From a bacterium (GTDB lineage: Bacteria; JAAXHH01): a stretch of DNA of 64,000 bases. Location of the stretch: assembly GCA_965240335.1 (NCBI GenBank), contig CBDEKM010000008.1, positions 311,072 to 375,071 on the forward strand, given 5' to 3'. Below the pieces are notes generated by a model. The model was not told the DNA's origin and ran no database searches. It saw only the letters and a program-made list of their open reading frames with translations. This document shows positions 22,173-54,300 of the stretch, in pieces. A program made the translations under genes and the position numbers. Each line of letters begins with the position of its first letter. Position 1 is the first letter of the stretch.

Positions 22173-22670
22173 CTATCCAGCATATAGCAGGCTTGCGATG
22201 ATCGAGCCGGCAATCACGAGCATCATTATCATCAGTTTGTTGGCCGCCGATGTCACGCTTTGCGCTATTTTAAGATCCTGTGAGGATATCTTTTCTTCAA
22301 GGAGATCGAATCGGCCTTCGTTCCCGGTAACCCATACCACCATATCTTTTTTTAAGGCCATGAATCTGCCTTCGAACTTGGCGTCCAGCGTCGCGATCTT
22401 TTCTACGACAGCCTCGAATCGTCTATCGTTCCTGGCATCCAGCGTCGCGATCTTTTCTCCCATGGCCGTTATCTTTTCTTCGACAGCTTCGAATCGGCTG
22501 TCGTTCCTGGCATCCAGCGTCGCGATCTTTTCTCCCATGGCCGTTATCTTTTCCTCGACAGCCTCGAATCTTACACCTAGCACGTCCTCCAGTGAATGAA
22601 AGGCGGAGTTCACGTCTGCCACCGTTGCATAGACCTCGCTGGGCGATTCCTTAACCTTGCTCTCTTCCAT
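22173..22670 (-). CDS. Tail-anchored coiled-coil repeat protein (C-terminal TM), unknown function
   Basis: 165 aa. Contains an exact tandem duplication RFEAVEEKITAMGEKIATLDARND x2 plus degenerate copies. C-terminal LMIMMLVIAGSIIASLLYAG. Lower GC than flanks. Confidence 0.5.
   Translation of the reverse strand: MEESKVKESPSEVYATVADVNSAFHSLEDVLGVRFEAVEEKITAMGEKIATLDARNDSRFEAVEEKITAMGEKIATLDARNDRRFEAVVEKIATLDAKFEGRFMALKKDMVVWVTGNEGRFDLLEEKISSQDLKIAQSVTSAANKLMIMMLVIAGSIIASLLYAG
22380..22580 (-). repeat. 72-bp near-perfect tandem duplication (about 2.7 units) inside the tail-anchored repeat gene
   Basis: Plus-strand units beginning GGCATCCAGCGTCGCGATCTTTTCTCCCATGGCCGTTATCTTTTC... at about 22434 and 22509, preceded by a shorter degenerate copy. 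Confidence 0.7.
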
Positions 22671-22761
22671 GATTTCCTCCGGGGATTCCAGTGGACTGGC
22701 TTCTATTCTTCTATATCAGTCGGAGAACGTCACAAGTTCTCGAAACAGAAATCCGTTGTGA

Positions 22762-27460: not shown

Positions 27461-27505
27461 GCATTGAGCCACGATAAGGATTCTACGCGACCAGGACTCC
27501 ACAAT

Positions 27506-37544: not shown

Positions 37545-38264
37545 ATGAAGAAAGTCCTGTTGCTCGGTGCGTCCGGACTCATCGCGCCGCACATCATCCC
37601 GTCGCTGGAGAAGGACTACGACCTGAAACTGGCCGACATCAAGGAACATCCGGACGGTAAACCCATTCTCAACGTGGATGTCCGTGATTACGGCCAGGTC
37701 CGCGAAGCCGTGGAGGGTGTGGACGCCGTGATGAACTTCACGGTGCTGCGCCACGACGACGTCCTCAGCTTCCAGGTGAACACCATCGGAGCCTGGAACG
37801 TCATGAGGGCGGCGGCCGACGCGGGGATCAAGAAAGTAATCCACTCCGGTCCCGCCCAGACCCTTGAGTGGTATACCCACGATACGGACATCCCCGTCGA
37901 CGCGCCCGACGCTCCGTCCACCGACTACTATTTCATCACCAAGCACATGAGCAACGAGATCGTCAGGAGCTTCGCCCGGCGCCATGAGATCCACACGGTC
38001 TGCTACCTGTTCCAGGGCCTGGCGCCCCGGCCGACCCAGCCCGCCAGAAAGACGTCGACCCGGGATTTCCTCATCATATACGACGATCTTGCCGTGGCCT
38101 GCCGCCAGGGACTCGAGCTCTCCTCGGTGCCTGGCTTCTACCAGGTCTTCAACCTCCACAGCCATTACGGACCGGGAAAGTACAGCCTCGAGAAGGCGGA
38201 GCGCATCCTGGGGTATGCTCCGCAGGAGAAGTGGTGGGACTGGAAACGTAGGCCGGCAGGCTAA
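37545..38264 (+). CDS. NAD-dependent epimerase/dehydratase family protein (atypical SDR)
   Basis: 239 aa. MKKVLLLGASGLIAPHII..., YxxxK-like YYFITKHMSNE. Confidence 0.6.
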   Translation: MKKVLLLGASGLIAPHIIPSLEKDYDLKLADIKEHPDGKPILNVDVRDYGQVREAVEGVDAVMNFTVLRHDDVLSFQVNTIGAWNVMRAAADAGIKKVIHSGPAQTLEWYTHDTDIPVDAPDAPSTDYYFITKHMSNEIVRSFARRHEIHTVCYLFQGLAPRPTQPARKTSTRDFLIIYDDLAVACRQGLELSSVPGFYQVFNLHSHYGPGKYSLEKAERILGYAPQEKWWDWKRRPAG

Positions 38265-38293
38265 CGATGGGCTAGCGACAGTATCAAGGGAGG

Positions 38294-38497
38294 TCAGTCG
38301 ACTTGGGGAGGTGGTCTGTTGGAGGGTCTTGGATGCTTCCAGCCGCGCCAGATCTTGTCCCGATAGCCGCTGGCGAGCTTAACATCGATCTCGATGCCCA
38401 GGGTTAGGATCTCTTCGTCATTCAATGATTCTAACAGCGTGTTTTTGATGGATTCAACGACCTCGGGGGTCAGAATCCGGCCTTTCTTCGTCGACAT
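38294..38497 (-). CDS. Small hypothetical protein (67 aa)
   Basis: Preceded by GGAGG SD. Co-operonic with the upstream 84-aa gene (16-nt spacer). Lies in a low-GC (~42%) islet. Confidence 0.35.
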   Translation of the reverse strand: MSTKKGRILTPEVVESIKNTLLESLNDEEILTLGIEIDVKLASGYRDKIWRGWKHPRPSNRPPPQVD

Positions 38498-38513
38498 GGC
38501 CGTCTCCTTCCGA

Positions 38514-38768
38514 TCAGTCCAGAAGTAGTTTGAGCGTAATGGTGACCAGGAGACCGAGAATTGCTAGTAAAATGGAAAGCATGAAGTTTCTCCACCACCG
38601 AGCATCGCTTTCCGTGTTCTTCAACCGTTCTACGTTGTATTCTATGAGTTCCCGCATGTTGTCGTCCGATGTTTCAAGGCCGGACAGACGGCTTTTGACG
38701 TTCTGGTCCTTGAAATACACTTCCTCCATTAGTTCTTCCGTGTCTCTTAGGGGTTTGTGATTGTTCAT
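38514..38768 (-). CDS. Small tail-anchored coiled-coil protein (84 aa), XhlA-like architecture
   Basis: Charged helical N-terminus and a single C-terminal TM (FMLSILLAILGLLVTITLKLLLD). Low-GC islet. Confidence 0.4.
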   Translation of the reverse strand: MNNHKPLRDTEELMEEVYFKDQNVKSRLSGLETSDDNMRELIEYNVERLKNTESDARWWRNFMLSILLAILGLLVTITLKLLLD

Positions 38769-38993
38769 GTTTGGGTTCTGTTCTTATCGGTGTATGCATG
38801 GCCCCACGAAGGAGACATGTTTTTTAATGAGGAATGTCGTATTCTCTGTCGCACGCTCGGTCGTATTTTCAATAGTCGGAAAAACGTCAAAAACCTCGGC
38901 GCTGTTTTGATAAGTAATCGGACTGTAATCGATTGCAAAAGAGATAACAAACTTATAACAGGTACATTTCAGCCAATCAAGGAGAATCACTAA

Positions 38994-40055
38994 ATGTCCA
39001 GAACCGTACGCGTATTCGTCGGCACCTACACCCAGACCACCAGTAAGGGCATCTACGTTTACGACGTCGACACCGATACGGGCGTCATGGATTACGTCAG
39101 CCACGTGGGCGGCATCGTGAACCCGTCCTTCCTGGCCCTCACGCCCGACGCCCGCTTCCTATACGCCGTCGGCGAGACGGGCGACCCCCACGGAGGCGTC
39201 TTCGCCTATTCCGTGGACGCGTCCGGCACGCTCACACCCCTGAACAACCAGTCGACCCACGGCTCCGGTCCCTGTTCCATCGACGTGCACCGCGGCGGCA
39301 AGGCCGTCCTCGTGGCCAACTACGGCGGCGGGTCCGTGTCGTCCTTCCCCGTAAACGGCGACGGTTCCCTGGGCGAGGCGGCCTCTGTGATCCAGCATAC
39401 CGGGTCGAGCGTCGACCAGGGCCGGCAGAAGGAACCCCACGCCCACATGATCCGCCACGACCTGGACTACAACTACGTCTTTTCGCCGGACCTTGGCACC
39501 GACAAGGTCATGATCTACGCGCTTGATCCAGATACGGCGGTCCTGACTCCCCACGGCGAGGCGTCCGTGCCGCTCGGTTCCGGACCGCGCCACATCGAGT
39601 TCCACCCCAACCGCAGGTTCGCCTACGTGATCAACGAGATGGGCAACACGATCACCGCCTTCGCCTACAACGCCGCGGCCGGTACGCTCGCCGAGATGGA
39701 GTCCGCGCCGACGCTCCCCGACGGTTACGACGAGGTCAGCCACACGGCGGACATCCACATCACCGACGACGGGAAGTATCTCTACGGGTCCAACCGCGGC
39801 CACGACAGTCTCGCCATGTATTCGGTGGATGGGGACTCGGGCCGTCTGACGCTCCTCGGCATCGTGCCCACGGGCGGCGAGAACCCGCGGAACTTCGGCA
39901 TCGACCCGACGAGCAGTTTCGTCCTCGTCGGCAACCAGAGCTCGGACACGGTCACGTACCACCGTCTCGACCCGGACACGGGCCGGCTCCATCTCTCGGG
40001 TGTCGTCGCCGACATCCCCATGGCGGTGTGCCTGAAGATGATCCTGGTAGACTGA
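38994..40055 (+). CDS. 7-bladed beta-propeller lactonase (6-phosphogluconolactonase Pgl/YbhE family)
   Basis: 353 aa. MSRTVRVFVGTYT...GIYVYDVD...NPSFLAL...FLYAV typical of YbhE-type lactonases. Confidence 0.8.
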   Translation: MSRTVRVFVGTYTQTTSKGIYVYDVDTDTGVMDYVSHVGGIVNPSFLALTPDARFLYAVGETGDPHGGVFAYSVDASGTLTPLNNQSTHGSGPCSIDVHRGGKAVLVANYGGGSVSSFPVNGDGSLGEAASVIQHTGSSVDQGRQKEPHAHMIRHDLDYNYVFSPDLGTDKVMIYALDPDTAVLTPHGEASVPLGSGPRHIEFHPNRRFAYVINEMGNTITAFAYNAAAGTLAEMESAPTLPDGYDEVSHTADIHITDDGKYLYGSNRGHDSLAMYSVDGDSGRLTLLGIVPTGGENPRNFGIDPTSSFVLVGNQSSDTVTYHRLDPDTGRLHLSGVVADIPMAVCLKMILVD

Positions 40056-42128
40056 GTGCAGACTGAGCGGCCGCCCTCTTCTTATCCAGAACCGGGGTCC
40101 GGACCGGACGATCGTTCGGATCCCTCCCAGCAGGATCGCGTCTGGCAGAAGTTCGTCGCCCGGTCCCGCCGCGAGCCCCTGCCCTTCGAGGACCACCTGG
40201 AGGCGTACCACCGCATCTTCGACGGCCGCCGGCCGGAAGACGGACCACCCGCCATCTGGTCGCCCGACGCGGAAACGATCCGTCGATCGAATCTCCAGGC
40301 CAGCATGGAAGCGCTGGGAATCGACCGCTACGAAGATTTCCACGCCTGGTCCGTGCGCGACCGCTCCGGCTTCTGGACCCAAACCCTCGAGCGGCTTGGT
40401 ATCGTATTAACGAAACCGCCGAACGCCATCCTCGACCTGGCCGGGGACGTTCGACAGCCCTGCTGGTTGCCCGGCGCGGAACTGAACATCGTCGACAGTT
40501 GCTTCACCACCGAACCCGGCCGTCCCGCAATCATCACCCCCGCGCCGGACGACCGATCGCTCTCCGTCACGACCTATGGCGAGCTGGAGCGCCTTGTAAA
40601 CCGCCTCGCCAACGGTCTGCGCGAACGGGGCCTGGCGCCCGATCGGGCCATTGCCCTCTACATACCTCTGAATCTGGAATGCGTGATCGCCTACCTGGCC
40701 ATCATCCGCGCGGGATCACGGGTGGTATCCATCGCCGACAGCTTTCCGGTAGCTGAAGTACGGCGCCGCATGGCCATCGCCGGCGCAAACTGCGTCGTCA
40801 CTATGGACCGTTACGTCCGCGCGGGAAAGACCATACCACTGTATGAGACGGTGATGGAGGCGGGCGCGTCCACGGTAATCGTCGTGCCATCGGGTGACGA
40901 AGCGCCGAAAGATTCCGCTGCAACCGCGGGAGTATCGAAAACCCGCGTTCGCGCCTGCGACATTTCCTGGCACGACCTCTTCTCCACCGACGACACCTTC
41001 GAATCCGTGACCGGCGACCCCAACCGAATGACCAACATCCTGTTCTCGTCGGGTACCACCGGTGAACCGAAAGCCATACCCTGGACCCATCTGACGCCCA
41101 TCAAGAGCGCCATGGACGGCTACTACCACCAGGACATCCACGGGGACGACGTGACGGCCTGGCCGACCAACATCGGATGGATGATGGGGCCGTGGCTCAT
41201 CTACTCCACCCTGGTCAACGGCGCGTCCATGGCCCTGTATCCCGACGCAACCAGCGGAGCCGACTATCCCAGTTTCATCCAGCGAGCGGGTGTTACCATG
41301 CTGGGCGTCATCCCATCCCTGGTACGGATCTGGAGACACAGCGGCGCGACCGACGGCGTCGACTGGCCGTCTATCCGCGTCTTCAGCTCCACGGGCGAAC
41401 CCGCCAGCCGTAACGACTATCTGTGGCTCATGAGCCGCACCGGTTATAGGGCACCCGTGATCGAATACCTGGGCGGTACGGAGATCGGCGGCGGTCACCT
41501 GGCCTGCACGGTCCTGCAGCCCTGCTCGCCTGCGGCATTCACCACGGCAAACCTGGGCGTGGACTTTGTCATTCTCGATGAAGCGGGGAGGGAGGTCGAA
41601 GAGGGTGGGACCGGAGAGCTATTCCTGTTGCCCCCGGCCCTCGGCATGTCAAAGCGCCTGTTAAACGGAGATCATGACGAAGTCTATTACGAAGGCTGCC
41701 CAACCGGACCCCGGGGCGAGATCCTGCGCCGGCATGGCGACAACACCCAGTTGCTTCACCGAGGCTATTACCGGGCCCAGGGCAGGGCCGACGACGGGAT
41801 GAACCTGGGCGGCATCAAGGTCAGTCCCCTGGAACTGGAGCGGATCGTAGATGGGCATCCCGCCATCTACGAAAGCGCGGCCGTGGCCGTGCAGCCCGAG
41901 GGTGAGGGCGCCGAACGGCTGGTGGTCTTCGTCGTCCTCGAAACCGTTACCGTCCGCTCGGACATCGACCCCTCCGCAATGAAAGAGGAACTCCAGGCCA
42001 TGATCTCCACAGGGCTGAACCCGCTCTTCAGGATTTACAATGTAGTCCTCTCGTCCGAACTGCCCCATACGGCTTCCGGCAAAATCGTCCGCCGCACGTT
42101 GCGGGAGAAGATGAACAGAGTACAGTGA
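40056..42128 (+). CDS. AMP-forming acyl-CoA synthetase (acetyl/propionyl-CoA synthetase-like, with ACAS_N region)
   Basis: 690 aa. YEDFHAWSVRDRSGFW (ACS N-domain), AMP-binding box ILFSSGTTGEPKAI, YRAQGRADD, C-terminal SGKIVRR. GTG start directly after the upstream stop, so the true start may be internal. Confidence 0.8.
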   Translation: MQTERPPSSYPEPGSGPDDRSDPSQQDRVWQKFVARSRREPLPFEDHLEAYHRIFDGRRPEDGPPAIWSPDAETIRRSNLQASMEALGIDRYEDFHAWSVRDRSGFWTQTLERLGIVLTKPPNAILDLAGDVRQPCWLPGAELNIVDSCFTTEPGRPAIITPAPDDRSLSVTTYGELERLVNRLANGLRERGLAPDRAIALYIPLNLECVIAYLAIIRAGSRVVSIADSFPVAEVRRRMAIAGANCVVTMDRYVRAGKTIPLYETVMEAGASTVIVVPSGDEAPKDSAATAGVSKTRVRACDISWHDLFSTDDTFESVTGDPNRMTNILFSSGTTGEPKAIPWTHLTPIKSAMDGYYHQDIHGDDVTAWPTNIGWMMGPWLIYSTLVNGASMALYPDATSGADYPSFIQRAGVTMLGVIPSLVRIWRHSGATDGVDWPSIRVFSSTGEPASRNDYLWLMSRTGYRAPVIEYLGGTEIGGGHLACTVLQPCSPAAFTTANLGVDFVILDEAGREVEEGGTGELFLLPPALGMSKRLLNGDHDEVYYEGCPTGPRGEILRRHGDNTQLLHRGYYRAQGRADDGMNLGGIKVSPLELERIVDGHPAIYESAAVAVQPEGEGAERLVVFVVLETVTVRSDIDPSAMKEELQAMISTGLNPLFRIYNVVLSSELPHTASGKIVRRTLREKMNRVQ

Positions 42129-42158
42129 ACCGACGACGAGGGGTTGGGATTGCCTCGA

Positions 42159-42452
42159 TCAAGTGAGATCACCCTGCCTTTCGCGAAACACGCTTTCCAG
42201 CAAGCCTTCAATTCGGGATACCCTGCTGTCGATATTCGAAACCCTACCGCTCAACTCCCGTATTTCAGATCTCAGTTCACCGGTTTCTTTGTTCATTTCG
42301 GATCGCAGGCTGCCGATCTCAATTCGCATATCGGATCGCAGGCCGCCGATCTCGTTGCGCATTTCTCTCGAATCCGCCTTGAGATCACGAAGCACGTAGA
42401 CGAGTACGGCAATCGTAACGGCCGGTGGAAGCCAGACTGCCAATGCATCCAT
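42159..42452 (-). CDS. N-terminally TM-anchored protein made of 11-residue repeats (xEIGxLRSxMx)
   Basis: 97 aa. TM residues 5-21, then about 6 consecutive 11-mers (ADSREMRNEIG GLRSDMRIEIG SLRSEMNKETG ELRSEIRELSG ...). Confidence 0.5.
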   Translation of the reverse strand: MDALAVWLPPAVTIAVLVYVLRDLKADSREMRNEIGGLRSDMRIEIGSLRSEMNKETGELRSEIRELSGRVSNIDSRVSRIEGLLESVFRERQGDLT

Positions 42453-42456
42453 GTGC

Positions 42457-42999
42457 TCACTCCTGTTTTCGGATCAGCATCCTCAACTCGCCTTCGACGC
42501 GTCCCAACCTGCCGTTCAATTCGTGGATGTCGGATCTGATCGCACGGTGCTCACTCTGCATATCATTCCTGATCGTACGGTGCTCACTCGTCATATCATT
42601 CCTGATTGCTTCAATTTGGTCCTTCAACTCAGTTCTGATCGCCTTGTGTTCACTGCGCATTTCTACCCTGATGGCGTTGAACCCGTCGTGCATTTCCGAT
42701 CTGAGAGTTTCGATCTGGTCCTTCATGTCACTTCTAATATCGCTGTGGTCGCTTTGTATTTCATTTCTGATCGCCTTGTGTTCACTGTGCATTTCTATTC
42801 TGATGGTGTTGAACCCGTCGTGCATTTCCGATCTTAGCGATTCAGTTTGGTCATTCATATCGGTCCTGATCGCCTCGAAACCATCTCTCATTTCGGCACG
42901 TAGCACGTTTGTAGATTCGTCCTGCCAGGTGACTACTGCGACGACAAGCAAGCCGGCTGCTGCCACGGCCTGGATGACGATAATGAGTTTCTGATACAT
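42457..42999 (-). CDS. N-terminally TM-anchored, His-rich protein made of 13 near-perfect 11-residue repeats (x[ED]MxxxxxxIR)
   Basis: 180 aa. TM residues 5-25, then AEMRDGFEAIR TDMNDQTESLR SEMHDGFNTIR IEMHSEHKAIR NEIQSDHSDIR SDMKDQIETLR SEMHDGFNAIR VEMRSEHKAIR TELKDQIEAIR NDMTSEHRTIR NDMQSEHRAIR ... The DNA shows about 120-bp internal near-identical repeats. Confidence 0.55.
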   Translation of the reverse strand: MYQKLIIVIQAVAAAGLLVVAVVTWQDESTNVLRAEMRDGFEAIRTDMNDQTESLRSEMHDGFNTIRIEMHSEHKAIRNEIQSDHSDIRSDMKDQIETLRSEMHDGFNAIRVEMRSEHKAIRTELKDQIEAIRNDMTSEHRTIRNDMQSEHRAIRSDIHELNGRLGRVEGELRMLIRKQE

Positions 43000-43216
43000 G
43001 TTACCCCACGAACTGAAACAAGTGCTGTAAACACGCTTCCTGCTTAGATCAGTCGAAATACGCGGTGGAATCTCGTAAGCTGTCTACTCAGCCCATCATC
43101 ACACGCCCACTGTAACCTGGGTATTGTTCTCTAGAGTCTTGGTCCCACTCCAACCACATATACGTCCCAACCTTCCCATGCATCCGAAGTCGGATAAAGA
43201 GAGGTCTCTTCTCGGC

Positions 43217-43302
43217 GGACCGCGGCGAATCCGAGCAAGGACTGATCGAGGTGCGCAGCCGACCGCAACGAATCCAGGCTAAGACTGATCGCAGTGCTCA
43301 TC
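43217..43302. repeat. Imperfect 43-bp tandem direct repeat x2 (GACCGCNNCGAATCCNNGCNAGGACTGATCGNNGTGC...) in a divergent intergenic region
   Basis: Units at 43217-43259 and 43260-43302, about 70% identical, with a further partial CGAATCC/GAAATCC motif downstream. Confidence 0.4.
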
Positions 43303-43580
43303 GAACCCGGCGGCAAATCCGGACAGCGAAATCCCGCACCTAAACTTAATGCTTATTTTTGAGTGAGTAAAAACTGTTAAACAGGTCTTGACTTACGCTA
43401 TTACTACTCAACACTATTTAGTAAACATATCTTGACTTAATCTACATTTAGTATAGTAATTCATTTATAATTACAAATACACCGCACGGCGCGGCAGAAA
43501 CAGTCACATCAATACGGTAAGACCGGCCGACAACAATGTGGTATGACCGTTCGCCAGACTACCGGGGAAAGATCTTTGAA

Positions 43581-44702
43581 ATGAGCCGTAAACGCGTCGC
43601 CATCGTCGCAGGCGGCCGCACGCCCTTCGTCAAGTCGGGGAAGGCCTTTGCGGAAATCGATTCCCTGGGCATGGCCGTACACGCCACGCGCGGCATGCTC
43701 GACCGGAGCGGGATCGACCCGGGGCTGATCGAATCCGTGGTCTTCGGCACGATGACGCCCGATCCCCTGAAGCCCAACCTAGCCCGGGAGCTCGTCTTCG
43801 AGGCGGGGTTGCCGATCGGTGCCGAGGCCCAAACCGTGGCCTCCTACTGCATCACCGGGCTGCGGGCGACTACGGTCGTGGCCGACGCCATCGCCGGCGG
43901 CCGTATCGAAGTGGGTCTGGCCGGCGGGGTCGATTCACTGACCCGGGCATCCATGGACCTCTTTAGAGAACCATCAACGGGCCTGACCATGGGTGAGCAC
44001 ATGGAGCTGACCGTCAAGGAGTGGGACATTCCGCGCGAGAGGCAGGACGAGGTAGCCCTGGCGAGCCACCAGAACGCGGTAGCTGCACGCGACAAGCTGG
44101 CAGGTGAAATCCACCCGCTGCTGGGCGAGGAGGCCGACTCGGGCCCGCGGGCCGAAACGTCGTTGGAAGCGCTGTCCGCGCTGAAGCCCGTATTCGACCC
44201 GGAGCACGGCACCCTGACGGCGGGCAACTCGTCGCCGGTGACCGACGGCGCAGCGGCGGTGCTGATGATGAGCGAAGAGAAGGCAGAAGCCGAACAGCTG
44301 GAACCCCTGGCCTTCATCGGCGGCATGGCCTACGCCGCCCACGACCCGGCCGAAGGGTTGCTCATGGCACCGGCCATCTCAGTGCCGCGGCTCCTGGAAG
44401 GAAGGAACCTGACGATGGAAGACATGGACCTGGTAGAGATCCACGAGGCCTTCGCGGCCCAGGCATTGGCCAGCGCGGCCGCCTGGGAACAGGGCTGGAA
44501 AGGCGCGCCCACGGGCGAGGTCGACTGGGACCGGGTGAACGTCAACGGCAGTTCCATCGCCGTGGGCCACCCCTGGGCGGCCACCGGGACGCGCATCCTC
44601 ACGACCCTGGCCAACGAGATGGCTAGGCGCGACGTTCGTTACGGCCTGGTCAGTATCTGTGCCGCCGGCGCCATGGCCGGAGCGTTCCTGCTTGAGCGGT
44701 AG
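43581..44702 (+). CDS. Acetyl-CoA C-acetyltransferase (thiolase II family)
   Basis: Start at MSRKRVAIVAGGRTPF (ATG 43581). Catalytic Cys context VASYCITGLRA. C-terminal GHPWAATGTRIL and CAAGAMAGAFLLER, typical of thiolases. Confidence 0.85.
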   Translation: MSRKRVAIVAGGRTPFVKSGKAFAEIDSLGMAVHATRGMLDRSGIDPGLIESVVFGTMTPDPLKPNLARELVFEAGLPIGAEAQTVASYCITGLRATTVVADAIAGGRIEVGLAGGVDSLTRASMDLFREPSTGLTMGEHMELTVKEWDIPRERQDEVALASHQNAVAARDKLAGEIHPLLGEEADSGPRAETSLEALSALKPVFDPEHGTLTAGNSSPVTDGAAAVLMMSEEKAEAEQLEPLAFIGGMAYAAHDPAEGLLMAPAISVPRLLEGRNLTMEDMDLVEIHEAFAAQALASAAAWEQGWKGAPTGEVDWDRVNVNGSSIAVGHPWAATGTRILTTLANEMARRDVRYGLVSICAAGAMAGAFLLER

Positions 44703-45326
44703 ATTGAAAGGAGGGAGGAATCTGAAATCACGAAAAGAGCCATATTTGTCTATACATCGGGAAAACGATCAAATAAGAGAAGAATCATAAAAAAGTTTTT
44801 GACTGAAGCATATTTACGGTAATAAATACTTGATTTAACAATGGGGAGCTGGTAAACTATCCCATGATTAATCCCACACTTGACAAAAATACAAAAAAGT
44901 TATTGACTTTGGCGCAGTTACGGGATTATTTACTTGATTTTGTAGCACGGTCCATATATACTAAGTCTTGTTTTCCGAAGAGGTTTCAGTCACGGAAAGC
45001 AAAATTGACACACGGTGAAGTAAGCGATACCCTTGCACCTCTTGGAGAGGTTGCAGGATAACGGGTAACGGTTTTCGTATGTTTGCAGTTGCGGTAATGA
45101 CCTTAAGATCATTCAGGTGTAAGAGCGTTTTACTCCACAACGCGCACGTCATTCTAAGGAGAATCAATATATGTGTGTTAGTCCGGTGCGGCCTGAAGCT
45201 AAACACGGTTCTCATGTTGCATTCTCCCGACGGGAATCCCGGTCTGATCATGCCGGCTTTTCCGCAAAGCGTATAGAAATGTGTGATCATCCATCCTTTC
45301 TTATAAGGTTTAAGGAGAATTTACAT

Positions 45327-48300
45327 ATGCGGTACATTTCCAGGTTCAAGAACTCTATACGTGCTTCGAGCGTTTACAGCCTGGCGTTCATGTTTGTGTT
45401 CGCCTTAGCTGCGAACCTGACGACGTACGAAGAAGCCCACGCACAGCGTTCGATTCAGCTGATTGTGGATGCGCCGGACCCTGCGGAATTGATGGAGACC
45501 GGTACTGCGACTACCGTTACGCTGTCAGCTGAGCATGTTGTAATAGATGAGGATTTAGCACTACCGACCGAAGCGATCACTATTACAGTAAAGTTACCCG
45601 TGCTCGAGGGAATGAATCCGGATTATGCCATCACAGACACTGATGGTACCGATGACGGAATGGTGGAGTTAACGCTCACTGGGGCTAGTTCCAATACGGT
45701 TAACTTCACCATAACCCCCCGTGACGATTCTGTCTTTGAAGCGGATAGGACAATTTCATTAACTGGTGAGGCCTCGGGATATGTCGTGCTTGCCGCCAAA
45801 ATCAAACTGCTGGATGACGATCATCAGCTGGAATTGTCAGTCGAACCATCTACGGTAAATGAGGATAAGGGCGAGCAGACGGTGATCGTGACCGCAAACC
45901 TCACTGAAGACGCGCCGTTAGCTACCACTGTGCCGTTGACGATATCTCCTGCGTCGACGTCGTTTTATACTCTTAGCGCTACCGCGCTGTCGATTCAGAT
46001 ATCGGCAGGTTCGAGTTCAGGTACGGCTAAGTTTAACATCACGCCTGTCGACAACGACACTTACGATGGTAACCAGAAGATCAAGGTTGATCTTAATGAT
46101 GCTCAGAGCAATCTGGCACTTAGAGAAGCGAAAGAGATCGTGCTGGCGGACGACGAAAGCCCACCCGCCTTGGATCTCTCCGTATCTCCTTCCAGTATTA
46201 AAGAGGCCAATGGCGCTCAGACAGTGACGGTGACCGCGAAGTTGACAGATGGCGTGCTGTTGTCGTCATCTACAGTGGTCACAGTCAATATCGCTGCCAA
46301 TGACGATCAGTATACTCTGAGCACCAAAGTACTTGCAATAACGATCAGGGCCAAACGTGATTCGGGGAGTGCTAGGCTTACTATTACTCCTGAGCCGGAT
46401 GGAACTTACGAAAGGCACATGGCCATTGGTCTGACCGGTAGAGCGACCATATTGGATGACGTAAACATCAGCGATACTGCGACGGTAACGTTGTTGGATG
46501 ATGATCAGGAAGTTACACTGTCGGTGTCGCCTGCGACGGTAAAAGGCGCAGCGGCGGAGGTAGTCATCACGGCCTTGTTGGATCGGCCAGCCAGGGATGC
46601 CAGTGGTTTCGACGTACCCATAACCATCGGTGAAGCAAATCCCTCCGCATATTCTTTGTCAGCTGAAACTGATGTCGGGCTATCCGGTAATGGATTGACG
46701 ATCACGGTTCCGACTGGATCCTCGATGCGATCAGTGACGGTGACTGTTACACCGGTTGATGTATATGCCGCCGGTAACGCGCAATACAATCGCGATGTAG
46801 AGATTGGCGTTGATGTCGCTGACGCTGGCCCGCTGGGGAGATCAGCCAAGATCACGCTGAAGGACTCGATCGACCGGCCGAAGCTGGAACTGGCGGTGAC
46901 GCCGGAAACTGTGATGGAAGAGCCGGCGATGGACGACGATGCCAATACTGATGGCGTTCAAACTGAATTAACCATCACGGCTACGCTGGACGGCGGGACT
47001 TTTCAAGGCGATTTTGGTGTAGTTGTAGAAATCTCCGAGGATGATGATTTCTATACCGTGTCTTCTAAAGAAGTAACCTTGACTCCCGCCGGTTCTTCGT
47101 CTGGACCATGGACGGGAACAGTGATGGTCACGCCTGATCCGGACAGCAAGTTCGAGGCGTACCAGACCATCTCCTTCTCGGCCAAAGCGACCGAAGCGAG
47201 TCCACCTGACGGAAGTGACGCGATCGAGTTAACGGCAAGCGATACGGTTCAGTTGCAGGACAACGATCATCACGTGACCTTGGCTGTAGAGCCTTCGTCA
47301 GTGACCGAAGAAGGCGGAGAACAGACGGTGATCGTGACCGCAGAACTGACCGCTCCTGCACCGATAGCGACCACAGTGCCGGTGACCTTGTCGCCCACGA
47401 CCTCATCGTTCTACAGTCTGGACGCTCATGTACTGTCAATCCAGATTGGAGCCGGTGCGAGTTCCGGTACGGCGAAGCTGAACGTCACGCCAGTCGACAA
47501 CAACACCTACAATGGTACACAGAAGATCAAGGTTGACATTGCAGACTCGAGTCCGCTGGTACTTCGCGCTACTAAAGAGATCGCGGTGACCGACGACGAG
47601 AATCTACCGGTGATGTCATTGTCGGTGGATCCGGATGAGATCACCGAGGCCGGTGGCGCGCAGACGGTGAGCGTAACGGCTAAGCTGATGGACGGCGTGA
47701 TACTGTCGACGCCCACGGTGGTGACGGTGAAGGTAGTCGACGATGACGAGCAGTATGCGCTGAGCTCGAAAGAGTTCGCGATCACGATTCCTGCCAACCA
47801 GGCAACCATGTCGGCGAACCTGCTCATTACACCTGAACCCGATGGGACCTACGAATCCCACCTGGGTATCGGTCTGTCGGCCGAAGCGACCATCAAGGAC
47901 GGCGATGATGACGTCAAGCTCAGCGCTGCCACGACGGTAACGCTGCTGGACGATGATCAGGAGGTTACGCTGTCAGTGTCGCCTGCGACGGTGAAGGGCG
48001 AAGCGACAGATGTAGTCATCACGGCCACACTGGACCGGCCAGCACGAGGCGTTAACGGTCTCACGGTTCCCGTAATGATCGCGACGGGTGGTAGCCATAG
48101 CTTGACAGATGAAGATGGAAATGCCATAGCTAATGGCCTCGTGAACATCGTGGTCCCAACGAGTGCTTCCGCACAGTCGATTACGGTTACGGTGACACCT
48201 GCCGGTGATTACGCCACCGGAACCGGCTACAATCGGGACGTGGGAATTGACGTTACGGTCACCAGTGCCAGCAACCTGCTGGGCCGGGAGGCGACGATCA

Positions 48301-51300
48301 CGTTGAAGGACTCGATCGACCTGCCGAAGTTGGAACTGGCGGTGACGCCGGAAACTGTGATGGAAGAGCCGGCGATGGACGACGATGCCAATACTGATGG
48401 CGTTCAAACTGAATTGACCATCACCGCCACACTGGAAGGCGGAACCTTTGGGACTGATTTCGAGGTAGTCGTAGAAATCTCCGAGAATGAGGATTTCTAT
48501 ACCTTATCCGCAAACGAGGTGACCTTTACGATTAGCGCGAATGGCACGTCTGGAACCGGAACGGTGAACATCACGCCTGACCCGGACAGCAAGTTCGAGG
48601 CGTACCAGACGATCTCGTTCTCGGCCAAGGCGACTGAAGATGTTACTGAAGATGCGATCGAGTTGACGGCAAGCGATACGGTTCAGTTGCAGGACAACGA
48701 TCATCACGTGACCCTGTCCGTAGAGCCTTCGTCAGTGACCGAGGATGGCGGAGAGCAGACGGTGATCGTGACTGCGGAACTGACCGCTCCTGCGCCGATA
48801 GCGACCACGGTGCCGGTGACCTTGTCGCCCACGACTTCGTCGTTCTACAGTCTGGACGCTCATGCGTTGGCGATTCAGATTGGAGCCGGTTCGAGTTCCG
48901 GTACGGCGAAGCTGAACGTCACGCCAGTCGACAACGACACCTACAATGGCACCCAGAAGATCAAGGTTGACATTGCAGACTCGAGTCCGCTGGTACTTCG
49001 CGCATCTAAAGAGATCGTGGTGACCGACGACGAGAATCTGCCGGTGATGTCTTTGTCGGTGGATCCGGAGGAGATCACCGAGGCCGATGGCGCGCAGACG
49101 GTGAGCGTGACGGCGAAGCTGATGGACGGCGTGCTGCTGTCGACGCCCACGGTTGTGACGGTGAAGGTGGCCGACGATGACGAGCAGTACGCACTGAGTT
49201 CGAAAGAGTTCGCGATCACGATTCCTGCCAACCAGGCAACCATGTCGGCGAACCTGGTCATTACACCTGAGCCCGATGGGACCTACGAATCCCACATGGG
49301 TATCGGTCTATCGGCCGAAGCGACCATCAAGGACGGCGATGATGACGTCAAGCTCAGCGCTGCCGCGACGGTAACGTTGCTGGACGATGATCAGGAGGTC
49401 ACGCTGTCGGTGACTCCAGGTACTGTGAAGGGCGACGCGACAGAGGTTATCATCACGGCCACGCTGGACCGGCCGGCTCGGGGCAACAACGGTCTCACCG
49501 TACCCGTAATGATCGGGGCTTCAGGTGACAGCGGTTATAGTTGGTCAGCTGAAGGTGTAACCAGCCCAAGTCCTGGCGATGTGGTGAACATCGTGGTCCC
49601 AACGAGTGCCTCTGAGCAATCCATGGCGGTGACGATTACTCCTACTGGTGATTACGCCACCGGAACCGGCTACAATCGGGACGTGGGAATTGACGTTACG
49701 GTCACCAGTGCCAGCAACCTGCTGGGCCGGGAGGCGACGATCACGTTGAAGGACTCGATCGACCTGCCGAAGTTGGAACTGGCGGTGACGCCGGAAACTG
49801 TGATGGAAGAGCCGGCGATGGACGACGATGCCAATACTGATGGCGTTCAAACTGAATTGACCATCACCGCCACACTGGAAGGCGGAACCTTTGGGACTGA
49901 TTTCGAGGTAGTCGTAGAAATCTCCGAGAATGAGGATTTCTATACCTTATCCGCAAACGAGGTGACCTTTACGATTAGCGCGAATGGCACGTCTGGAACC
50001 GGAACGGTGAACATCACGCCTGACCCGGACAGCAAGTTCGAGGCGTACCAGACGATCTCGTTCTCGGCCAAGGCGACTGAAGATGTTACTGAAGATGCGA
50101 TCGAGTTGACGGCAAGCGATACGGTTCAGTTGCAGGACAACGATCATCACGTGACCCTGTCCGTAGAGCCTTCGTCAGTGACCGAGGATGGCGGAGAGCA
50201 GACGGTGATCGTGACTGCGGAACTGACCGCTCCTGCGCCGATAGCGACCACGGTGCCATTGACCTTGTCGCCCACGACTTCGTCGTTCTACAGTCTGGAC
50301 GCTCATGCGCTGGCGATTCAGATTGGAGCCGGATCGAGTACCGGCACGGCGAAGCTGAACGTCACGCCGGTCGACAACGACACCTACAATGGCACCCAGA
50401 AGATCAAGGTTGACATTGCAGACTCGAGTCCGCTGGTACTTCGCGCTTCTAAAGAGATCGCGGTGACCGACGACGAGAATCTGCCTGTGATGTCTTTGTC
50501 AGTGGATCCGGAAGAGATCAACGAGGCCGATGGCGCTCAGTCGGTGAGCGTAACGGCTAAGCTGATGGACGGCGTGCTGCTGCAGACGCCCACGGTTGTG
50601 ACGGTGAAGGTGGCCGACGATGACGAGCAGTACGCACTGAGCTCGAAAGAGTTCGCGATCACGATTCCTGCCAATCAGGAATCCATGTCTGCGAACCTGG
50701 TCATTACGCCGATACCGGATGGAGCGTACGAAGCTCACATGGGTATCGGTCTGTCGGCCGAAGCAACCATCAAGGACGGCGATGATGACGTCAAGCTCAG
50801 CGCTACCGCGACGGTAAAGCTGCTGGACGATGATCAGGAGATCACGCTGGCGGTGTCGACCGCGACGGTGAAGGGCAAGGCGACGGACGTAGCCATCACG
50901 GCTATGCTGGACCGGCCGGCCCGCGGTACTAACGGTCTCACCGTACCCGTAATGATCGGTGCCGACGGCGATGATCAGTATACTTTGTCGTCTGAAGGTA
51001 CCCCCAGTCTCGCACCAGGTGGCACGGTGAACATCGTGGTCGCCACAGGTACATCCGCGAAATCGGTAACTGTAACGGTGACGCCAGCCGAGACCTATGT
51101 CGCAACTGACATGAATTACGATCGTGATGTAGGGATCGATGTTACGATCGCTGATGGCACAGCTTTGCTGGGCCGGTCGACGAAGATCACGCTGAACGAC
51201 TCGATTGATCTGCCGAAGCTGGAACTGGCGGTGACGCCGGATACTGTGATGGAAGAGCCAGCAGTGGATGCTGATAATGATGCAGCTAATGGCGTTCAAA

Positions 51301-54300
51301 CGCGGCTGACCATCATGGCCACGCTGGACGGTGGAACCTTTACGAACAATTTCGATATTGTCGTAGAAGTTTCACAGGATACTGATTTCTACAGCGTGTC
51401 CTTGGAAGAGGTAACATTAACTGGTTCTGCTAACGGACCCTGGACCGGAACGGTGGATATCACGCCTGATCCGGACAGCAAGTTCGAGGCGTACCAGACA
51501 ATATCGTTCTCTGCCGAAGCGACCGAGCAGAATCCTCCTGCGGGAAGCGATGCGATCGAGTTGACGGCAAGCGATAAAGTGCAGTTACGTGACAATGATC
51601 ATCACGTGACGCTGGCTGTAGATCCAGCTTCAGTAAATGAAGAAGACGGAGTACAAACGGTAGAGGTGACGGCGATGTTGACCGCACCTGCGCCTGTAGC
51701 TACCACGGTGCCGGTGACGTTGTCGCCTGCGACCTCGTCGTACTACAGTCTGGACGCTCATGCACTGGCAATAGAGATCGGGGCCGGTTCGAGTGAAGGC
51801 ACGAAGGAACTTAACATCACACCGGTCGACAACGACACCTACAATGGCACCCAGAAGATCAAGGTTGACATTGCAGATTCAAGTCCCCTGGTACTTCGCG
51901 GTTCGAAAGAGATCTCGGTAATTGACGACGAAAGCCTGCCGGTGCTCGCACTGACAGTGGATCCGTCCGAAGTTAACGAGGGTGGTGGCGCTCAGTCAGT
52001 AAGCGTGACTGCTGAACTGGTCGACGGTGTCGTGTTGCAGACGCCTACAATCGTAACCGTGAAGGTGGACGCCGATGACGATCAGTATGCGTTGAGTTCA
52101 AAAGAGTTTGCGATTACGATTCCAGCCAATCGGGATTCGAGATCCGCGGACTTGATTATTACTCCTAAGTCTGATGGATTGTTCGAAGCTCACATGGCAA
52201 TAGGTCTGTCGGCAGAAACAACCATCAAAGACGGCGATGATGACGTAGATCTCAGCGCTGCAGCGACGGTAACGCTGTTGGACGATGATCATGAAGTCAC
52301 GCTATCGGTTTCACCTGGTGAGGTGTCGGAAGTTGGCGGAAGCTTTCCTGTGACTGTAAAGGCAAGATTGAATAGTCCCGCAAAGAGTGACCTCACGATA
52401 CCGGTTGAGATCGAAACATATGATGAGAATGCGAATTCTCATCCTATCGGGTTTACCGTGACGGATACTGACAACACACCGAATGACGGTATGGTTGATA
52501 TTTCCATTGCCGCTGGAAAGTCAGAGGCGTCAACTACGGTGATGATCGCCGCGACATACAATGCCGATCATACCGAAAACGCTGTCATTAACGTAACAGG
52601 AGGAGATATCGCATTATCGGTTAGACCAACAACAATCTTGATCAGAGACTACGAACAGGTCTCTATACAGTTATTGGCTAGCCATCCCAGTATCACTGAA
52701 GCCGGAGGTTTACAGACTGTTGAGATCACGGCTGAAATAACACCCAATGCAATCGGTGATGATGTAGCTATCAGTCTAGCAGTCGGTGGACAGGCGACAC
52801 TGAATGAAGATTTCGGCGTTAGTGGTTTGCTGGAAATCGAAATCGGTGCCGGTAGTACCGAGGGATCGACGGAACTTACCTTCATACCGGTTGACGATTT
52901 TGTGAATGAGTTCAACGAGACGATTACGGTTTCTGGTTCAACAGTTGGCGGACATAGTGTTAGCTCGGTATCCATTGTGTTGGCTGATAACAATGAGATA
53001 CCACTGGCTAGTATCTCGGCGCCTTCAGTTGAACTTAGCGAAGCTGATGATGCCGTAACCGAGATCGCAGTAACTGCTACGCTGGCTGGAACGAGTGGTG
53101 AACCTATTAATGTAGTGCTTGATATTAATGGTTCGGCCACGGCCGGTGTTGACTATGAGGTTAGTGGAGATCTCAGGTTCTCGATAAATCCCGGAGACAG
53201 CAGTTACACGGCTAATGTCGCAATCACGGTCTTGGATGATGCGCTCTATGAGGGTAATGAGACCGTTGTGATCGAAGCCAGCGCGTCCTTGGGAGATCTT
53301 GAACTACCCAATAGATCTCAACCATTGAGATATATGATTATTGACAACGATTCGGCACCGATGATTGCCCTCTCAGTGGATGTAGAAACAATAAATGAGG
53401 GTGACGAAGCGACGGATGTGACCATCACTGCCACCGCATCCAGTGCTAGTGCCGTCAACATTCCAATCACGTTGGCCAAGCCTGGTACGGCCGTAATTGG
53501 TGAAGACTTCATGGTCTCGTCCGAACAGGAAGATTTCATCATAATCGCAGGCGAAACTACAGCAACGAAGGTAGTGACGATCACGCCGATCGATGATGAA
53601 ATCTATGAAGGTGACGAGCACTTCATGGTCAACGGTACGGTACCGGGTTCCGACGGTGAAATAGACGTCGACGGCACGATGATCACGCTGACTGACAACG
53701 ATGATGTGCCGACGGTTGCACTGACCGTGGAACCCGATATGATTGCTGAGGGTAGTGAAGTCGAATTCACGATCACGGCCACGCCGTCTCACATGAGTTC
53801 CATGCCGATTACAATCGTACTGGACAAGTCGGGTGGATCGGCTACGCTTGGCGAGGATTTCGAGATTGTAGCGGCTACCGAAGGCGAGTACGTGATCGAA
53901 GCGATGGATTCGTCCGCTACGAAGATGGTCACGCTTTCGGCTATAGCCGATATGCTCTACGAGCAGGAAGAGATCATCGTTGTGGGTGGAATGTCAATGG
54001 CAGGTGATTCGGAAGGCATAGCGGTTATGACTGACGAGATCACGCTGACCGACGGCGATCCGATGCCGATGGTCACGCTGATGGCGGACATGGAGTCGAT
54101 CAATGAGAACGGCGAGGCCGTGGACGTAACGGTTACGGCCATGCTTTCCGGTTTGAGTTCCATGCCCATCACAGTGGAACTGGCCAAGTCCGGTTCGGCC
54201 ACGAAGGGCGAGGACTACACCGTAACCGGCGAAGGTGCAATCACGGTTGCTGCCGGCGATGAAATGGGTATGACGATACTGACGATCGTTCCGGTAGATG

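Follow-up and report, generated by a model that had tools for sequence, protein, structure and literature searches.

Two adjacent membrane-anchored hendecad-repeat proteins belong to an unnamed, multi-copy gene family of putative coiled-coil stalks from uncultured sponge and coral symbionts

Introduction

What could be the role of two small membrane proteins that consist almost entirely of 11-residue repeats and are encoded between the genes of an acyl-CoA ligase and a thiolase? This question is raised by genes A and B, which lie side by side in a stretch of 64,000 nt of bacterial DNA (assembly GCA_965240335.1, contig CBDEKM010000008.1, positions 311,072 to 375,071 of the forward strand), hereafter called the window. 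A preliminary description of the window, made from the sequence alone, had recognized two adjacent membrane-anchored proteins built from 11-mers, which is confirmed here down to their coordinates, and had proposed from the neighbouring genes that they coat lipid or polyhydroxyalkanoate (PHA) inclusions or protect membranes under stress. The observation stands and the interpretation is supported in part, the neighbourhood-based guess of a lipid or PHA coat being replaced by a defined family to which no library gives a name. The hallmarks of this family are a transmembrane (TM) helix combined with 11-residue repeats (hendecads) and a putative heptad tip, many copies per genome, a fast change of repeat length, and a common cis-element. 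A and B belong to this unnamed, rapidly diversifying, multi-copy gene family. In the reading preferred here, to which a probability of about 0.55 is assigned, they are membrane-tethered coiled-coil stalks of variable length, incidental to the ligase and the thiolase and akin to the anchor-and-stalk proteins of the DUF1640/CCDC90-like type. The two genes are the following:

42457..42999, minus strand: gene A, a 180-residue open reading frame (ORF) for a bitopic protein with an N-terminal TM helix, 12 hendecads, and a C-terminal motif of putative heptads
42159..42452, minus strand: gene B, a 97-residue ORF and paralogue of A, with an N-terminal TM helix, about four hendecads of the EIGxLRxEM type, and a C-terminal GRVSNIDSRVSRIEGLLE

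A multi-copy family in sponge and coral symbionts

The motif N[GT]RLGRVEG was scanned in one genome per species across 185,579 species, and the family counts given here rest on the best 80 loci of the 137 motif matches obtained, 90 of which were confirmed by tblastn. All of these 80 loci are found in metagenome-assembled genomes (MAGs) from sponges and a coral, about 20 in number, whose records are inconsistently labelled as Latescibacterota, as Gemmatimonadetes/Gemmatimonadota, or plainly as 'bacterium'. The loci contain 134 family genes, with two to five copies each in 33 of them, while complete chromosomes carry at least 7–13 distinct family members each. An N-terminal TM helix is found in 128 of the 134 members. 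In an index of 5.8 billion proteins, nine relatives of A and five of B were recovered, all of which share the N-terminal TM helix, 11-mers in varying number, and N-[GT]-R-L-G-R-V-E-G as an invariant motif at the C-terminus. The family is defined by an N-terminal TM helix, an 11-mer array of variable length, and the C-terminal motif [NS]-x-R-[LV]-x-R-[VI]-E-G-x-L, all of which are present in both A and B. The number of repeats differs strongly even at a single genomic position, with 2, 4, 5, 5, and 12 in the same-position orthologues of A and about eight in the A-type gene of the related locus L089. In some paralogues (L017, positions 8001-8462; L022; L031; L041), the seven-residue end motif is itself duplicated in tandem, either as three copies of RLGRVEG or as NTRLDRVNTRMDGVNTRLGRVEG, and the tip can therefore also expand by repeats.

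Regarding the organisms, related proteins were obtained by a search seeded with a Candidatus (Ca.) Poriferisodalis protein and by cluster look-ups, and their source records carry the names Ca. Palauibacter or 'Gemmatimonadetes bacterium'. Moreover, the Ca. Palauibacter epithets irciniicola, poriticola, and rhopaloidicola fit the hosts of the family-bearing MAGs, and Palauibacterales are abundant in sponges (PMC10469786). The family-bearing MAGs are probably Ca. Palauibacter (Gemmatimonadota), and the window itself most probably stems from a Ca. Palauibacter-like symbiont. Among the loci seen, the family is restricted to uncultured symbionts of sponges and corals, and a second phylum of symbionts has an analogous family. 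The latter comprises unnamed proteins of Ca. Poriferisodalis, sponge symbionts of the Actinomycetota, which share with A and B the N-terminal TM helix, the variable 11-mers, a near-identical end motif (NGQRLARIEGYLGIG), and the presence of several paralogues, but differ from them in phylum and in the sequences of the TM helix and of the C-terminal tail.

Architecture of the two proteins

Three segments can be distinguished in A:

42925..42987, minus strand: N-terminal TM anchor, about residues 5–25, LIIVIQAVAAAGLLVVAVVTW, read directly from the sequence
42505..42900, minus strand: hendecad array, twelve 11-mers, residues 34–165, R-x-[ED]-[MIL]-x-x-x-[FHI]-x-x-[IL]
42472..42534, minus strand: C-terminal motif, residues 156–176, SDIHELNGRLGRVEGELRMLI, with the core I158-L161-L165-V168-L172-L175

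A begins with a tail of four residues followed by a hydrophobic helix of about 20 residues (5–24), and B also starts with a hydrophobic helix, which supports the single N-terminal TM helix proposed previously for each protein. Within the array of A, R1, [ED]3, [MIL]4, and [IL]11 occur in 12 of the 12 repeats; where 13 near-perfect 11-mers had been described, there are 12 regular repeats followed by a degenerate one, and just four of the 11 positions are fixed. The protein ends in ...HELNGRLGRVEGELRMLIRKQE. In B, about four clear 11-mers of the form R-x-[ED]-[MI]-x-x-E-[IT]-G-x-L are followed by two degenerate units and by the tail ...LSGRVSNIDSRVSRIEGLLESVF... The 11-residue periodicity is real, as self-identity at an offset of 11, compared with shuffled sequences, amounts to 0.33 in A (z=12) and 0.30 in B (z=6), and the hydrophobicity spectrum peaks at 3.65 residues in A and 3.6 in B, near 11/3 and not at the heptad value of 3.5. 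At the DNA level, the internal duplication reported earlier is present with a unit of 132 bp instead of about 120 bp: Tandem Repeats Finder detects 2.0 copies of this unit (77% matches) together with 33-bp units in 2.1–2.2 copies (86–92%). The His-rich character attributed to A amounts to a slight enrichment of modest extent (9 of 180 residues, 5%). A lacks Pro and has a net charge of −8, its repeat region being net acidic.

On an 11/3 helical wheel of A, the hydrophobic positions 11 (I/L), 4 (M/I), and 8 (F/H/I) fall within about 65 degrees, and this seam is flanked by the invariant R at 0 degrees and by E/D at 196 degrees. The mean hydrophobic moment (muH) of A is 0.36, compared with 0.34 in apoA-I, and the repeats are amphipathic, in agreement with the preliminary description. 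AlphaFold2, with family alignments as input, models A as one unbroken helix from residue 2 to 179 (predicted local distance difference test, pLDDT, of 88) and B as one unbroken helix from residue 3 to 92 (pLDDT 89); the repeats are therefore predicted to be helical and not disordered. In a Foldseek search of the PDB, the AlphaFold2 model had 0 matches, which is to be expected of a lone helix. The last 21 residues or so of A change to a 3-4-3-4 spacing of hydrophobic residues, a pattern from which the C-terminal motif appears to consist of three canonical heptads. These would carry the residues that are invariant in the family alignment, namely N162, R164, L165, G166, R167, V168, E169, and G170. 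This motif takes the form NGRLGRVEG in A and, as a variant, SRVSRIEGLL in B.

Comparison with known protein families

None of the curated family models in Pfam and NCBIfam claims A or B, as the preliminary description had anticipated when it suggested a new protein family, and NCBIfam returned for them only generic coiled-coil noise. The Pfam models with the closest resemblance are the following:

Apolipoprotein (PF01442): 31.4 bits for A and 13.3 bits for B, below the cutoff of 90
CCDC90-like (PF07798): 24.0 bits for A and 18.2 bits for B, below the cutoff of 33.5, covering only profile positions 76–152 (the stalk)
DUF1664: 15.6 bits for B, below the cutoff of 34.6

A search of 1.84 billion representative proteins with a profile of the A family gave 2,514 hits at E<=1e-3, of which 207 reached E<=1e-10; in most cases, the match runs via the repeat region alone. 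Among the top 140 hits, 100 also match CCDC90-like PF07798 and 102 match Apolipoprotein at E<=1e-3, and their TM helix is C-terminal in 52 cases, N-terminal in 26, and lacking in 51. Several of the C-terminally anchored hits are bona fide CCDC90-like/DUF1640 proteins, with 34–52 bits against the cutoff of 33.5. The repeats of the A family align with bona fide CCDC90-like bacterial proteins in hhalign at 99.1% (E=3.7e-19, 75 columns), although such scores are inflated. Sequence matches in the PDB comprise ApoE (E=1e-4), ApoA-I (about 2e-3), and a three-chain DUF1640-type entry, 6h9l (E=0.16), in keeping with a trimeric DUF1640 stalk.

DUF1640/CCDC90-like proteins resemble A and B in being small proteins with a single TM helix and a long stalk of the same 11-mer, written EF-A-A-V-R-x-E-M-K there and G-F-x-A-I-R-x-E-M here, and the hendecad stalk F-x-x-[VI]-R-x-E-M is present in A and B. 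Nevertheless, they possess an N-terminal head domain and a C-terminal TM anchor, whereas in A and B the TM helix comes first and a soluble motif of the NGRLGRVEG type closes the chain. In the bona fide CCDC90-like members examined, the Pfam profile is matched from position 1, in the head, through to the C-terminal end. Judged by their sequences, A and B are related to the DUF1640/CCDC90-like proteins through the repeat unit and are not members of that family. The 11-mer is a widespread stalk unit, and the peculiarities of A and B are the N-terminal anchor, the lack of a head domain, and the conserved end motif. Eukaryotic members of PF07798 (MCUR1, CCDC90B, and yeast Put6/Put7) have been described as membrane scaffolds (bioRxiv 10.1101/2025.10.14.682030; PMC7519068). 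The repeat unit links A and B to these poorly understood DUF1640/MCUR1 scaffolds and, thus, the two proteins may serve as simple bacterial models of that stalk.

Further groups deserve comparison. The exchangeable apolipoproteins (ApoA-I, ApoA-IV, and ApoE) share with A and B the 11-residue period and an amphipathic helix rich in Arg, Glu, Leu, and Met. However, they are secreted and soluble and show Pro-punctuated 22-mers and a wide hydrophobic face bordered on both sides by basic residues, while A and B are TM-anchored, with a narrow hydrophobic face and coiled-coil-like charges. Subunit b of F-type ATP synthase consists of an N-terminal TM helix, a long hendecad helix that forms a right-handed coiled-coil stalk, and a C-terminal binding region. 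It resembles A and B in the N-terminal anchor followed by a long hendecad helix, but A and B have no atp operon nearby, their flanks being the ligase and the thiolase, and they differ by their many paralogues per genome and variable repeat number; the NCBIfam model for F-type ATPase subunit b (b'), PRK08476, reaches only 14 bits (E=0.04) against a cutoff of 118. Lastly, the PADLOC search for defence systems yielded nothing beyond weak matches to long proteins rich in coiled coils, ZorA among them (best E=4.5e-6, LeoA). PARCEL repeats, in which DNA with dyad symmetry encodes a motif of 25 residues (PMC2996958), were considered and rejected because the period here is 11 residues and the region contains just one weak 18-nt inverted pair.

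Proposed membrane-tethered stalks and competing readings

From these sequence features, an oligomeric state, a topology, and a cellular role can be proposed for A and B. The narrow seam of M, F, and I, lying between an Arg flank and a Glu/Asp flank, would promote a parallel homo-oligomeric coiled coil, possibly also an A–B hetero-oligomer; such a narrow core with oppositely charged flanks is the pattern expected for interhelical salt bridges and not that of a class-A lipid-binding helix. The product would be a nearly straight rod, about 20 nm long for A and about 10 nm for B, held at the cytoplasmic membrane and pointing, according to the positive-inside rule, into the cytoplasm. The repeat array would act as a spacer of adjustable length that grows or shrinks by 11 residues, and the invariant C-terminal heptad segment could be a tip that sets the register or binds a partner. 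A and B would therefore work in the manner of the DUF1640/CCDC90-like (MCUR1-type) anchor and stalk, or of the ATP synthase b stalk, and not in that of lipid-coating apolipoproteins.

The proposed topology is based on the charge distribution in the family. On average, family members contain 0.43 Lys plus Arg (K+R) in the N-terminal tail of about five residues and 3.7 in the first 15 residues past the TM helix, and 96% of them have more K+R after the helix than before it. According to the positive-inside rule, an N-out/C-in orientation is therefore predicted, which places the repeats in the cytoplasm.

Several points weigh against this proposal. The charges flanking the TM helix of A itself are ambiguous, since MYQK precedes it and an acidic WQDEST follows. 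An AlphaFold2 model of a single chain cannot tell a coiled coil from a monomeric helix or from one lying on a surface, and hhalign scores among repeat-rich coiled coils are inflated by composition. The seam of A is weak for a stable coiled coil because position 8 is His in five of the 12 repeats and position 7 is polar. A full-length A–B heterodimer is disfavoured because the two proteins differ two-fold in length and, besides, B is absent from some relatives. Finally, binding to a membrane surface retains some credit because the muH of A is close to that of apoA-I.

This last point leads to the strongest competitor, an unlikely one on balance, in which the 11-mer helix would behave as an apolipoprotein- or LEA-like surface binder, lying flat on the inner membrane and stabilizing or sensing the bilayer, for instance under stress. 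The 11/3 periodicity and the muH are compatible with it, although the amphipathicity metrics were not used in either direction because muH does not separate A and B from apoA-I. Moreover, Apolipoprotein is the top Pfam match of A (E=2e-7) and is matched by the majority of the top profile hits (102 of 140), and the best PDB sequence matches are ApoE and ApoA-I. The likeness to apolipoproteins pointed out previously holds as this weak resemblance, but not as family membership, since 31 bits fall far short of the PF01442 cutoff of 90. The hydrophobic face comprises merely three of the 11 residues and differs from that of class-A helices in having Arg on one flank and acidic residues on the opposite one. 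In addition, the net acidic repeats (−8) disfavour binding to anionic bacterial membranes, and the Pro-punctuated 22-mers of apolipoproteins are missing, A being devoid of Pro.

It is rather doubtful that the rod points in the opposite direction, as a periplasmic stalk or tether in which the TM helix would be a type II signal anchor and the coiled coil would cross the periplasm in the manner of Lpp, TolA, or i-spanins, its tip touching the wall or the outer membrane. A variable rod length fits such a spacer role, the tail of A is basic (MYQK) and the residues past its TM helix are acidic (WQDES), and a close relative (P0025) marginally passes the Lectin_N model of type II stalks (29.4 bits, cutoff 28.3). 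Nonetheless, the excess of K+R past the TM helix in 96% of the family runs against this orientation, and no partner lipoprotein gene is apparent. Neither is there a phage context: no relatives were found in a scan of viral contigs, a tblastn search against phages gave two weak coiled-coil matches at 27% identity, and the PHROG matches are limited to phrog_21734, of unknown function (56 bits), and to generic coiled coils, with no membership in XhlA or i-spanin families.

A shared upstream element

The genes of this family appear to have a regulatory signal in common. A 32-nt element is found upstream of A and at three other positions in the window:

43047..43078, minus strand: 32-nt upstream element of A, TTACGAGATTCCACCGCGTATTTCGACTGATC, 47 nt before the A ATG, 31.5 bits with the position weight matrix (PWM)
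38870-38901, minus strand: copy of the element, 101 nt upstream of the 84-residue ORF 38514..38768
36691-36722, minus strand: copy of the element in the 157-bp spacer between amidohydrolase and epimerase genes, toward the amidohydrolase 3' end, with no convincing ORF downstream
22714-22745, minus strand: copy of the element, 43 nt upstream of the 165-residue ORF 22173..22670

Across the subfamilies, the consensus of this element reads TTaCGAGATTnnCCnGGtTTCTCCGACTaAT. A PWM scan of 2.7 Mb, comprising the family loci and the window, gave 69 matches compared with two in shuffled sequences, and most of them lie immediately before genes of the family, in several subfamilies. Their distance from the start codon is usually less than about 100 nt, whereas one subfamily has the element about 250 nt upstream. 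The pattern CGAG-N13-YTYCGACY has four matches in the window, all on the minus strand, against 0.09 expected, and 0 of 100 shuffles reached four. This distribution suggests that the element is a candidate common promoter or operator for genes of small membrane-anchored coiled-coil proteins. If it marks a regulon, it would rank with the first signals of cis-regulation known from this uncultured lineage. A search of 42000-43600 for canonical sigma-70-like promoters found none. Inspection of the element shows no sign of a conserved RNA structure, as its arms do not covary between subfamilies. The k-mers that were initially found enriched upstream of family genes proved to be coding sequence of upstream paralogues (EMHDMNG) and were discarded. 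As for the copy at 36691-36722, near-identical copies of this variant (…TCCGG…TTCCGACCAATC), followed by a homologous short ORF, are found in L010 and L016, and the element may drive here a small RNA or an antisense transcript.

A more far-reaching version of the stalk proposal would take A and B as part of a co-regulated set of length-variable N-/C-anchored stalks that share the 32-nt promoter/operator and that have been expanded or exchanged specifically in unrelated sponge and coral symbionts (Palauibacter-like bacteria and Poriferisodalis) as a symbiosis-associated membrane architecture. This idea is speculative and must be regarded as doubtful. If true, the set could form, e.g., a lattice on the cytoplasmic face or a spacer layer whose height can be adjusted, controlled by a regulator of its own.

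The genomic neighbourhood and the previously proposed lipid/PHA coat

The order thiolase, small genes, ligase, lactonase, second small-gene pair, and epimerases recurs nowhere but in close relatives, which have the entire region in common. Even there, the content of the slot between thiolase and ligase varies: both genes, A and then B, occupy it in the window, L001, and L002, B is missing from L006 and L014, and B is followed by A in L089. In the latter (positions 6001-6768), the gene order is inverted, a B-type gene coming first and a 139-residue A-type gene second. The slot is a rearrangement hotspot. Elsewhere, distant homologues adjoin a trypsin-like peptidase and a histidine kinase, lie between peroxiredoxin/DsbD and PhyH genes, or stand beside a molybdopterin oxidoreductase and a peptidase M74. 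The nearest large neighbours of the 80 loci, with their 134 paralogues, fall into 50 unrelated clusters, which include GatB, a phosphodiesterase, a GFO/IDH oxidoreductase, peroxiredoxin, PhyH, an AIR-synthase-like protein, and a leucine-rich repeat (LRR) protein, as well as RDD, nitrile hydratase, an enolase-superfamily enzyme, methylmalonyl-CoA mutase, an E2 acyltransferase, and a hybrid kinase. The position of A and B between the ligase and the thiolase is incidental.

The coat of lipid or PHA inclusions, functionally tied to the flanking acyl-CoA synthetase and thiolase, is thus largely refuted by the neighbourhood analysis and has become very improbable. The pair does sit between these two genes, and the arrangement recurs in five related contigs; however, these contigs belong to the close relatives that share the entire neighbourhood, and the link to lipid genes fails on a point that the preliminary description had itself put forward, since homologues sit beside unrelated genes. 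Moreover, A and B are opposite in strand to both neighbours, the ligase being convergent and the thiolase divergent with a 536-bp spacer in between. The ligase was correctly identified as an AMP-forming acyl/acetyl-CoA ligase. By contrast, the supposed PhaA-type thiolase is a thiolase of generic kind, which passes the acetyl-CoA C-acyltransferase model TIGR01930 (344 bits, cutoff 240) and remains far below the cutoff of the PhaA model (173 bits, cutoff 740). The listed Pfam matches of A and B (all with E<0.05) include no phasin, perilipin, or LEA family, and the listed NCBIfam matches no phasin or perilipin model. In addition, TM helices are not known to insert into monolayer-bounded inclusions, which makes the anchors of A and B ill-suited to such a coat.

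The spacer between A and the thiolase gene shows repeats of its own. At 43215-43300, there is a 43-nt tandem direct repeat (77% identity), whose length is not a multiple of three, and at 43378-43444 there are two 23-nt repeats (TAAACA..TCTTGACTTA), 44 nt apart. The second of the latter holds TTGACT, with a TATAGT-like hexamer about 16 nt downstream, a stretch that may be the promoter region of the thiolase gene.

Gene organization, composition, and selection

A and B are translationally coupled and probably co-transcribed genes, the ATG of B lying 4 nt past the A stop codon with an AGGAG 8 nt upstream of it, while A has a Shine–Dalgarno motif of the GGGG type. No terminator was found after B, and an Rfam scan of 38000-45400 at E<=1 revealed no RNA family. 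The dip in GC content noted earlier is confirmed with a different value, as the A/B region has 50.5% GC (with local 200-nt windows down to 45%) instead of 47%, while the flanking genes have 63.4% and 66.8%. About half of this deficit is due to amino-acid composition and about half to codon choice, because the two proteins recoded with the codon usage of the flanks would reach only 58–62% GC. AGA and AGG account for 14 of the 20 Arg codons in A, compared with 6 of 56 in the ligase gene. The family genes have a mean GC content of 52.9%, compared with 63.3% in their neighbours. In the window and in L009-L088, housekeeping genes have about 63–67% GC (0.77–0.89 at third codon positions, GC3), and values of 33–53% are found in this lineage for the spacers between genes and for one class of genes that are small or repetitive.

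Both A and B are real genes under purifying selection. In the minus-strand frame, the ratio of nonsynonymous to synonymous substitutions (dN/dS), calculated with orthologues from five related contigs, is 0.12–0.36 for A and 0.105 for B, and the orthologues of both differ in length by whole repeats. The ORFs on the plus strand across the same DNA are shadows of the repeat. The selection and conservation analyses already refute the notion that the ORFs are spurious and that a non-coding tandem repeat is open on both strands by chance, a notion which could invoke the long ORFs on both repeat strands (including one of 189 residues on the plus strand), the atypical GC content and codon usage, and the absence of the exact sequence of protein A from the protein collection, but which is practically ruled out by these dN/dS values and whole-repeat length changes, by the TM helix and C-terminal motif kept in at least 130 diverged paralogues, by a Shine–Dalgarno-like motif in 67 of 90 distinct regions upstream of family genes, and by the presence of the exact B sequence in the protein collection (NCBI and ENA sources).

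Other small and large genes in the window

The window contains further genes of unusual composition. A second pair of small low-GC genes, at 38294-38901 on the minus strand, is located between the lactonase and epimerase genes and is kept in the syntenic relatives. The 84-residue ORF of this pair (38514..38768) encodes a coiled coil with a C-terminal TM helix and scores 22.6 bits with the XhlA model (cutoff 34.7), and its partner is a 67-residue ORF with no family match. The 165-residue ORF at 22173..22670 on the minus strand (GC 50.8%) consists of repeats of about 22–25 residues (RFEAVEEKITAMGEKIATLDARND) and also has a C-terminal TM helix, its Pfam matches being sub-threshold. Among the large genes, a second very large ORF, of 2,020 residues, is found at 27464-33526 on the plus strand, and the largest, a giant ORF of 4,316 residues with many tandem domains of about 100 residues, occupies 45171-58121 on the same strand. 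The latter has a GC content of 55%, a GC3 of 62%, and an atypical codon usage, as in the small coiled-coil genes. Its C-terminal region looks, by eye, like a possible outer-membrane beta-barrel, and its syntenic homologues carry a faint precomputed match to Calx-beta.

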